A DNA stretch of 64,000 nucleotides from Perna viridis (taxonomy: Eukaryota). Shown one piece after another: positions 52,739 through 55,700 of the stretch. The position numbers and the translations under genes were made by a program. The stretch's first letter is position 1, and each line of letters starts with the position of its first letter. The stretch spans positions 40,461,626 to 40,525,625 of the forward strand of contig CM074516.1 in assembly GCA_037379345.1 (NCBI GenBank). Reading direction: 5' to 3'. Under the pieces are notes generated by a model that did not search any database, was not told the DNA's origin, and saw only the letters and a list, made by a program, of their open reading frames with translations.

Positions 52739-55700
52739 ATGACTAACATTGTCGTAAATGTTAAATACAATGCATCGTCACCATTCACAGTAAACGTACA
52801 TTCAGATTGGAGGATATGGGAAGTTAAGAAGGAAATTTCTCAGAACTTAAAATTGGCACCAGAAGAAATACAGTTAATATTTACCGGTTGTGTGTTGAAA
52901 AATGAAGCTTTTTTGAAGGTATTTTAATTTATAATATTTATTATTGTTTGTTATGTATACATTTTTGTATTTACTTTCATACTTTTATACAACAGCAAAA
53001 AATGATGGTAAAATAATGGTATCATCTTTGTCATCATCGTGCATCATTGTGTTGTCCTATAATAGTCTTTAATTTTGTCCCCGTGCAGGTCCGGGTGTTT
53101 AAAAGAATAGGCCTGCAGCAGCGCTAAGCTTGTCGTAAAAGGCGACTAAATAGTGCTCAGAGACCTAGCCGGGGGTTAGGCGCTCTGCCCACAGAACAAC
53201 TGGGATGTGTGCCCCAGGTGGTGGAATGGGGTACCCCTGGCATGTTACATGCTGGGGTTGTCAGGCTATAATACGGAAAACCTGACCGCAAACCATAGTG
53301 GTACACCGTGTTGGGAAGGATGCCACGTTCCTCACACGTTAAAGAACCCTGCTGTGGTATTCGATAGGAGTAGGAACCTTTGCGCTCCGCCACAGGAGGC
53401 TAAATTGCCCGACCTTACCCATCCCCCCTTTTTCTAGTGGCAATCAAAATTTGTCGACCCTGTTGTCCTTGTGACCCATCCTTTTTTTTATCATTTCATG
53501 TTCATTTTATCATCCATTTCATGTTCATTGTCTGAATATAGCTGAAATATTGCTGCTCGGACGTTAAACCCCAACAAACAACAAACAAACAATCTTTAAT
53601 TTTGAACGTACGCTAGATTTGAAGTAGGGCTATGAGTGTCAATGCTACATCAGTTTTGAAAGATCCCAATGTAGCAAAAACATTGTCTACTATACATGAA
53701 AAATATGTTGTCATAGAAGCAGACAAAGCCCAAAAACAACATTGTTGTCTGCAAAACATATTACATCCAATGTTCATTATCCAAGACATAGAAAGCAATA
53801 GCAGAAATTAGACTTATACCACTACTACACTATCCGAAGAGGAGATTGTCAAAAGCCATAAATCTGTACTATCCTCTTTTGGCTATCTACCAAAGTAGAT
53901 GACTGTGGTCTACAGTTTATATACTTGATTCCTAAACTCTATAAGAATCCATACAAACAATGCTACATAGCTGGATCTGCAAAGTGTATCTCCAGGCCTC
54001 TTTCAAGAGCGTCTCTAGTCCTACTACAGCAATTGCTCCTGTGGTGGTATTAATTTCAAGTGGATCCTGAAAAATTCGAAAGATCTTCTGGAAACCCTCA
54101 AAGGCTCAATTCAAGATTATTATCAGAATACAGTGGCATTAAAACCTATGGTTTTTTGGCTCTTTGTGCTTCCCCATACTCAGTTGAGGTCCCAACTGAA
54201 AAACATTGTGCATCGTTGTTGTTCCAAGGCAGATGGTAAACATAGATACAGATATATAGTTCCTGATAAAGATTCCTCATACTTTGTAAAAAAATAATTC
54301 CAAATCATCTTCCAAATATACCGAAGATGTTTTCAAAATGCTGAAATTTTTTTTATCAACAACATATTTATCTAATGTGGTGGACACGTAACTTGACATT
54401 TTTAGAGCAACTCAACAGGTGTTTCTAGACAAGCAGAGGACGCTTATTCTTCCAGTGCACCTGGTCCATGCTCCCAGTTTTTAATAGAGTCCTAGTTGCT
54501 GATTTACTTTTGTTACTTTGTATGTATTATTTTGGTTATTTTATGTTCTTTGTTGTGTGTGTCTGTTTTCCATGTCTGGTCCTTGTCCCTTGGTTACATT
54601 CTTTTGATTTCCGCATGAATCTTTCTTCCCTTGATTACTCCTTCATCCTCGTCTGGTGTCTGTAGACATTGACAGTTTAGATTCCAGGTGATTTTTGTAT
54701 GAGTGAATGGATCTGTTTGAAGTTGTACTACAAGGTGCCATACCTCAAAGGGAAGGCTTTCTTTTCACTTGAACTCTGATGAATTATTTTTAAAGAACCA
54801 AATGGAGCCAGAAACAAGCATTTTCGTGACATCTAAACAATAACTTGACTAAAAGTGAACATATCTCTGTGAAATTGTACCACAAAGTATCTTACCACCA
54901 AAAGAGGGAGGGGTATAGTTGTGGGGTTGTGACTAGAAGCATTTATATATTAGGAGCCAAAAAGGAGCCACTGGTCAAATTTTTACCCTGTGTTAAATAT
55001 TCAATAGGAATAGAAATTCAGAGTTGCATCAAACTTAAATGGTGTGTCCCTACTTGTCCCAACTGTTCAAGGTTTGAGCTCTGCAGTTGTATCAAGCTGC
55101 ACCCAACCAAGCATTTTATTTAAATGATTATTCAGAAGTACTTCTGTCTCATTTTCAAACACTGTTACAGTCTTAAGATTCCTGCCTACAGTATTTTGTG
55201 TATAGAATGTATAAAACTCACAAGAAATGACATTCAAGGAATATTTTTCCACCTTCCTGTTTCTACAGGAATTCTCAAATTAGAAACTCTAAATTTTGTT
55301 AACCATACTCTATTTTTTCATTCAACCGAATTAGATATTTCTCTAAACCAAATTCATTTTTAAAAGATCTATAAAACTGTCCCCTAGAAGATGTTGAAAT
55401 TTCATTATTCCATCTTGCAATAAAATGATCTGATAAAATCTGCTTAAAATACATCTTCTTTTGATAAAAATCTGGTTGATTCACAAAAATATACCCAAGA
55501 CCAGTATTGTTAAATAAAGATTTTATACAATTAACCCATTTGAAAGAATGCTGATCATTAAAATTTAACATATGTTTATAAAGAATACTGCTTAACTTAG
55601 ATTCATTAGACATAAGTTTGCTCCAATAAGATGCCATTCTCATTTTTACACGATTTTCTGGAAATCTTCCCAATTCTCCATAGACACAAAAATTTGGAGT

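Follow-up and report, generated by a model that had tools for sequence, protein, structure and literature searches.

The retroposon and its host locus

The window, by which we mean the whole stretch of 64,000 nucleotides of Perna viridis DNA analysed here, contains a ubiquitin-like exon of a gene that we take, by eye, to be parkin-like, with RING/IBR-like exons downstream and, in the intron that follows the ubiquitin-like exon, a 515-bp retroposon bounded by exact 12-nt TSDs (Table 1). Contigs from sequencing runs X1, X4, and X8 depart from the window at 52919, at the end of the ubiquitin-like exon, and the retroposon lies on the same strand as that exon (Pfam PF00240), in agreement with the sense orientation in a parkin intron that the initial annotation had proposed. 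Behind the element, at 53640–54400, is a second, decayed repeat with reverse-transcriptase-like fragments, and run X15 has high depth at 53643–53765 within this region.

The initial annotation had described a TSD-bounded retroposon with a compact head lacking A and B boxes; the boundaries and all six of its stem strands are where it placed them, no A or B box with up to one mismatch is present in the head, and ARAGORN identifies no tRNA there. There is a single A-box-like match with one mismatch in the body at 53219–53229, and the first 200 nt contain no B box; this word could have been left by a tRNA-derived module. Pol III terminates at T runs, and the T8 run within the body would stop it. 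The element ends in a LINE-type tail, and the supplement of PMC4758252 (consulted in part) contains scallop and clam SINEs with a tail end resembling the (CAAA)n repeat of this tail.

Table 1. Features of the retroposon and its surroundings (window coordinates); the helices are predicted.
Feature	Position	Strand	Basis
Host exon, ubiquitin-like domain	52739-52918	+	Pfam PF00240, E 1.7e-7
Left TSD, 12 nt	53066-53077	+	exact copy at 53593-53604
Complete non-autonomous retroposon, LP-SINE type, 515 bp	53078-53592	+	genome copies 85-99% alike end to end
Fixed 5′ end, two bases before P1	53078-53079	+	TSD-bearing copies
P1 hairpin, 53080-83 with 53092-95, 8-nt loop	53080-53095	+	first three pairs possible in 19/19 homologues, with a loop length of 8 or 9 chosen so as to fit P1
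Pseudoknot 1, 7 bp, 53085-91 with 53110-16	53085-53116	+	covariation
Conserved AGAATA, end of variable-length linker	53104-53109	+	invariant in the 19-row alignment, later rows of which were selected on it
P2 hairpin, 3 bp, 53117-19 with 53128-30	53117-53130	+	covariation
Pseudoknot 2, 53120-26 with 53151-57	53120-53157	+	at least 4 bp in 14/19 homologues
P3 hairpin, 53132-35 with 53143-46, 7-nt loop, then TAA	53131-53149	+	near-invariant
T8 run within body	53482-53489	+	sequence
LINE-type 3′ tail, terminal (CAAA)n	53532-53592	+	sequence
Right TSD, 12 nt	53593-53604	+	matches 53066-53077

A predicted fold with two tandem pseudoknots

The first 80 bases of the element are predicted to form two tandem pseudoknots and a side hairpin. 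P1, Pseudoknot 1, P2, and Pseudoknot 2 are able to stack end to end, and P3 forms the side hairpin, with a loop that resembles a T-loop. The single head sequence is not unusually stable (z −1.79; 12 of 200 shuffles are as good), and the case for the fold therefore rests on its homologues. These were aligned without structure input as 19 sequences, comprising the window, L223, and 17 rows chosen manually among 37 homologue clusters, with a mean pairwise identity of 59%. In this alignment 91.7% of the cells of 12 named pairs can pair, compared with 74.8% in shuffled controls, a share that is raised by the preference given to rows with an intact 5′ part.

Against controls that carry no correction for descent, the covariation score is 0.513 versus 0.194 for shuffled alignments (0 of 500), the true score is reached after swapping partners between rows in 0 of 100,000 trials for Pseudoknot 1, 0 of 100,000 for P2, and 1 of 100,000 for Pseudoknot 2, and when the seven viral rows are taken alone only one of 5,040 pairings for Pseudoknot 1 reaches 31 of 35 Watson-Crick pairs. 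Sliding the partners gives scores of at most 0.126, and changes on both sides are present at all five of the counted Pseudoknot 1 pairs and all three P2 pairs. The compensatory change by which the initial annotation had suggested judging its stems is thus present, and stems among those that it listed do covary; it had, however, missed the 3-bp P2, which crosses the 53120–26/53151–57 stem and so creates the second pseudoknot. Its eighth pair in the first pseudoknot, T53084–A53117, does not stand, being possible in only 9 of the 19 homologues, and this helix is therefore 7 bp long.

The helices differ in their support. All four P3 pairs never vary and so provide no covariation, and P3 also served as the search pattern. 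Pseudoknot 1 pairs poorly in L074 (3/7) and L172 (4/7), Pseudoknot 2 has fewer than 4 bp in five of the 19 rows (L062, L063, L066, L072, and L083, three of them viral), and in the window SINE family an alternative pairing of 53077–82 with 53170–76 competes with P1.

A repeat family with a fixed 5′ start

The head word has 8,107 exact matches in genome G000 and 134 matches to a one-base variant, with none for the reversed controls, so that the element is present in more than 8,000 copies. An exact TSD of at least 10 nt is present in 71 of 102 distinct full-length copies, and 69 of these 71 TSDs are 10–15 nt long. The gap between the TSD and CCCCG is one base in 46 of the 71, none in eight, two bases in nine, and at least three in seven, with an overlap in one; the element start is identical in 46 copies and lies within 1 nt in 64, in keeping with the common 5′ start that the initial annotation had expected of full-length copies. 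A young subfamily has T alone as its first base in 14 of 27 copies, the other 44 copies have G alone in 26, and one other repeat family, from a metagenome, has A in 75%. This subfamily specificity fits better with an inherited processed end than with a copied cap.

Selection on the head was avoided in a set of 20 copies, taken from 40 found by their tail. Fifteen of these reach positions 1–3, three reach positions 5–9, and two are truncated, and the 20 have no shared sequence upstream of the head. Because no longer shared 5′ part emerges from the tail-selected copies, the window copy is complete and is not a truncated tRNA-SINE; longer copies with a tRNA or 5S head, the alternative that the initial annotation had raised, are not present among the 20. 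A tRNA- or 5S-headed SINE is rejected on the same evidence, as there are no boxes in the head, no tRNA, and 18 of the 20 copies reach its first 9 nt.

No autonomous LINE carrying the SINE head was found in G000 among 30 of 134, 30 of 47, and 30 of 149 matches; SINE copies dominate these sets, in which every motif-bearing match is a member of the window SINE family. The copies are strongly clustered, with several per 3 kb in L005 and around C1:3.34–3.55 Mb, and some older copies have a younger one inserted into their (CAAA)n tail or immediately after it, with an inner TSD (L349, L350, L364, and L367). At L340 (G000:C1:9835500–9838000) one truncated unit is followed, head to tail, by four near-identical units of 504 nt; their junctions are identical and by eye no TSD is apparent, and the array may represent DNA-level amplification or a rare circular template. 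A circular template as a general idea was not supported, since 23 other tail-to-head junction loci look like nested or separate insertions; at these loci, where a pair has a long part in common its units are not identical, and several such pairs have an inner TSD.

The head in other retroelements

A pattern for the terminal hairpin alone matched nine viral contigs. Further scans gave five matches in genome contigs, with the look of animal repeats trapped in bacterial assemblies, and at least 122 in metagenomes, and there was no match in the phage collection. Seven of the nine viral contigs also contain AGAATA and the complementary upstream loop, neither of which the pattern required, and the other two, identical phage-like matches, have neither. 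Matches with the hairpin word alone in phage-like DNA (L065/L069 and L206) were treated as chance, as were other viral matches to a looser pattern, at no more than 17.3 bits. The animal-type repeats inside bacterial genome assemblies (L070–L074, including a LINE start in L074) are probably host DNA contamination or misassembly.

The initial annotation had associated the head motif with other invertebrate retroelements, and it does indeed occur there, in scallop SINE heads and in L074. The scallop heads in the PMC4758252 supplement (in part) took no part in deriving the helices and by eye fit all five of them. Pan_3, a snail SINE consensus in the same supplement whose 5′ end is given as undetermined, carries the motif as well.

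Four metagenome repeat families could be anchored at the head (40/47, 10/12, 20/22, and 9/11 copies). In all four, conservation begins two bases before CCCG, with 67–90% at position −2 and 70–100% at position −1, and is mostly 50% or less further upstream. The distance from P1 to P3 in retroelement families ranges from 46 to 182 nt; as the boundary is constant while this spacing varies, it is to the first stem that the 5′ end is tied. L074 represents the beginning of a LINE, in which the motif is followed by a long first ORF and an ORF for an endonuclease (APE), and L083 and L141 contain little beyond the head, T-rich filler, and a tail.

An I-type LINE of G000, L314, encodes RT, APE, and RNase H (Pfam) and has 5′ UTR blocks in common with L074 (25/28 and 38/49 nt), but LINEs of this type start with another head, which matches an HDV-like descriptor (26 of 30 loci). 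Because the two LINEs have these blocks in common and yet differ in their heads, the HDV-like head of L314 and the head of the SINE and L074 look interchangeable as formers of 5′ ends. We note that this is an abundant young I/Nimb-type LINE (L314:200–270, at G000:C8, about 23537700, and 26 of the 30 loci L234–L263), and that its first 70 nt can be fitted to a nested double pseudoknot, HDV-like and of the L1Tc/ingi type, and have Rfam matches at chance level only. A 13/15-nt word common to the L314 and SINE heads is at chance level (E 6). I/Nimb is not among the ribozyme-bearing clades in the consulted part of PMC5786205.

The head in viruses

In all seven small viral contigs (six distinct, as L062 and L067 are near-identical) the fold has coding-strand orientation and follows the last stop codon, with AGAATA 27–145 nt past that stop and 14–119 nt remaining to the contig end; none of the seven has an ORF of at least 100 aa downstream of the fold. 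Five of the six distinct contigs have RNA-virus markers, which are RdRP_4 in L064, RdRP_3 in L068, a nodavirus capsid in L066, a peptidase A21 capsid in L062, and an S-domain capsid with an RdRp-like ORF, read by eye, in L223/L321. The ORF of L061/L315 has no match in Pfam or PDB; at L315:255–2630 (−) it encodes 792 aa with polymerase-like words that by eye are ordered C-A-B, and it is possibly a very divergent permuted RdRp. Two of the viral contigs have tandem copies about 75–85 nt apart, with two complete copies in L223 (61.4 and 28.6 bits) and a second copy cut off by the contig end in L061. The fold is also present in a large DNA virus, between two ORFs of the 212-kb contig L063.

Distinct viruses have different sequences for P1, Pseudoknot 1, and P2, without further retroelement sequence apparent alongside, which argues that the fold has been kept for a function in RNA. 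Its retention there cannot be explained by a DNA promoter, as DNA is absent from the life cycle of RNA viruses. From these comparisons of sequence, the head appears to act as RNA and to be more than a DNA promoter.

Possible functions of the head

The reading that we favor, with a confidence that stops a little short of even, is that the head may be an exoribonuclease-resistant RNA (xrRNA) that sets where RNA trimmed out of host transcripts begins. Pol II would read through a copy of the element in a host gene, such as one in a sense intron as in the window, and debranching or cleavage at a poly(A) site would supply a 5′-phosphate entry, from which XRN1 or XRN2 would trim to the foot of P1 and halt, leaving element RNA with an exact 5′ end. 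The reverse transcriptase of an I/Nimb-type LINE would then recognise the tail and copy from the 3′ side, where such folds unwind. In viruses the block would yield a short non-coding 3′ subgenomic RNA; repeated xrRNAs occur in flaviviral 3′ UTRs. In plant-virus xrRNAs, XRN stops at the foot of P1 (PMC12397905, in part), and folds of this kind open from the 3′ side for a polymerase. The suggestion of the initial annotation that the structure lets the element be released from host transcripts seems the best frame for these data, and an exonuclease block would explain the retroelement and viral settings by one mechanism. Several points count against it: only one or two bases are unpaired ahead of P1, fewer than an exonuclease usually leaves; near-invariant bases in such numbers more often mark a core for catalysis or ligand binding; the RNAs protected in the viruses would measure only about 90–200 nt if the contigs are complete; and Pseudoknot 2 is weak in three of the seven viral rows, while P1 faces its competing pairing in the window family.

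A ribozyme cutting at the foot of P1 would fit the fixed boundary, the subfamily-specific first base, and the interchange of heads equally well, and the last of these arguably favors it. That the head is a self-cleaving ribozyme of an undescribed class, cutting just before P1 and freeing the element from host transcripts, nevertheless seems to us somewhat unlikely. The exact 5′ end at the foot of P1, the compact double pseudoknot of about 80 nt with its invariant single-stranded bases, and the HDV-like fold in the same slot of the sister LINE are all consistent with it; HDV-like and other ribozymes serve in this way in R2, L1Tc, and RTE (PMC6765202 and PMC5786205, both in part), and linear RNA viruses can bear ribozymes (PMC13725137, in part). 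However, in the viruses described in the consulted part of PMC13725137 the ribozymes precede ORFs or form pairs 186–399 nt apart, whereas the tandem copies here are much closer together, and our fold follows the last viral ORF, so that cutting at this point would cost the genome the 3′ end that it requires for replication. It is because the fold lies behind the final ORF in linear RNA viruses that we prefer the exonuclease block to a ribozyme. In addition, Rfam, the HDV descriptor, and short core sequences reveal no known catalytic core, and the 23 junction loci give no general sign of circular templates.

It is quite unlikely that the head is instead a T-shaped element that binds ribosomes or translation factors, acting as a 3′ translation enhancer in viruses, in translation start in LINEs, and in docking SINE RNA near new reverse transcriptase, with the 5′ end set by an overlapping Pol II promoter. 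The TSS of turnip crinkle virus, which consists of two coaxially stacked pseudoknots and a hairpin in the 3′ UTR and binds ribosomes (PMC5336357, in part), has the topology nearest to the head, whose domain 2 has the connectivity of H4b-H5-psi2, and a 77-nt stretch of L1Tc doubles as promoter and RNA structure (PMC4758252, in part). The T-loop-like P3 loop also speaks for this role. Such a role, however, requires two mechanisms and leaves the flush 5′ position in every retroelement family examined unexplained; psi3 of the TSS uses upstream sequence whereas Pseudoknot 1 of the head pairs downstream, and the invariant block lies at distances from the start that differ by more than 100 nt. The published reading of LP-SINEs, an internal DNA promoter alone with incidental stems, was proposed from position by Matetovici 2016 (PMC4758252, in part) and would suit the fairly conserved 5′-terminal bases of the retroelements. 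We consider it very improbable, and a promoter as the sole role is largely refuted, since three helices show compensatory change and the fold is retained in RNA viruses without the remainder of the element. The block, ribozyme, ribosome-binding, and promoter roles are not mutually exclusive.

Relation to known elements and RNA classes

The view of the initial annotation that the fold is not a clean fit to HDV, hammerhead, twister, or pistol is upheld by searches of Rfam and by the HDV descriptor. Rfam (15) contains no family for the window (E 10) or the seven viral loci (E 1), with chance-level hits only, and the HDV-like descriptor has no match in the window at 53031–53260. The hammerhead, twister, twister-sister, pistol, and hatchet ribozymes were rejected, having no Rfam match and only isolated one-mismatch words of short core sequences, and a mapping of the head onto coremin was also rejected. 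The head belongs to none of the ribozyme or xrRNA classes tested and yet likely works like one of them. Judging from sequence, we think it probable that it represents a class of structured RNA not described before, which has passed between RNA viruses of invertebrates, a large DNA virus, and the LINEs and SINEs of animals, and which would make RNA 5′ ends without a promoter and would be either the first xrRNA of a cellular retrotransposon or a new self-cleaving ribozyme.

The element type and head sequence are already in print (PMC4758252), as those of LP-SINEs or Nimb-type elements. Neither the fold nor its viral occurrence is described in Rfam 15 or among the matches listed in the literature on xrRNAs and retrotransposons, Nimb and ribozymes, LP-SINEs, and virus groups, a scope that excluded Repbase, subscription journals, and bioRxiv supplements, and an 18-mer of the head had no literature match. 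The fold provides a testable answer to the function of the LP-SINE or Nimb-type head, a question open since 2016. Should it block XRN, it would be a new xrRNA fold and a third route to full-length retrotransposon RNA besides internal promoters and ribozymes; should it cleave, natural self-cleaving ribozymes, of which few classes are known, would gain another. In either case, the presence of one 80-nt module in unrelated RNA viruses and animal retroelements points to exchange of RNA devices between them.

Among known elements, the window family belongs with the LP-SINEs: it has the same motif and layout as the pectinoid heads in the consulted supplement of PMC4758252 and the start of L074, variable TSDs, and a tandem-repeat (CAAA)n tail, and in both a LINE-derived head of about 70 bp replaces the tRNA head. 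It differs from published LP-SINEs in having its own body. Matetovici 2016 (PMC4758252) describes the head as common to Nimb-17_LMi, I-3_DR, and RTE-9_CPB and as a putative promoter, and the part of that account consulted mentions neither secondary structure nor viral occurrence.

Among RNA structures, the class 3 plant-virus and class 1/2 flaviviral xrRNAs resemble the head as compact pseudoknotted elements in viral 3′ UTRs, the point at which they halt the enzyme, at the base of P1, corresponds to the 5′ end of the retroposon, and class 3 also has a T-loop (PMC12397905, in part). The head nevertheless has a different connectivity, with two tandem H-type pseudoknots and a hairpin, no sequence match, and an occurrence in cellular retroelements. 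Both xrRNA types were rejected as assignments, class 1/2 because its three-way junction with two pseudoknots and a ring contrasts with tandem pseudoknots that have no three-way junction, and class 3 because it has stacked P1–P2 and an apical T-loop pairing with the 3′ end, whereas the head has a single P1 with an 8–9-nt loop and its T-loop-like hairpin is a separate downstream element. The HDV-like ribozymes of R2, RTE, and L1Tc/ingi are likewise double-pseudoknot RNAs flush with the 5′ end, present also in short derivatives (PMC6765202 and PMC5786205, in part), but the pseudoknots of the head are tandem rather than nested, with no equivalent of P3/L3 or P1.1, and an HDV-like assignment was rejected because the head does not have the nested order P1-P2-P3-L3-P3′-P1′-P4-J4/2-P2′. 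The turnip crinkle virus TSS shares with the head three hairpins, two stacked pseudoknots, adenylates near a pseudoknot, and, in the viruses, a tombus-type 3′ UTR (PMC5336357, in part); compared by fold alone, the number of elements and the connectivity of domain 2 are alike, whereas the first pseudoknot is opposite in direction, pairing downstream in the head, and the third hairpin of the head is tiny and near-invariant, in a structure of about 80 rather than 100 nt.
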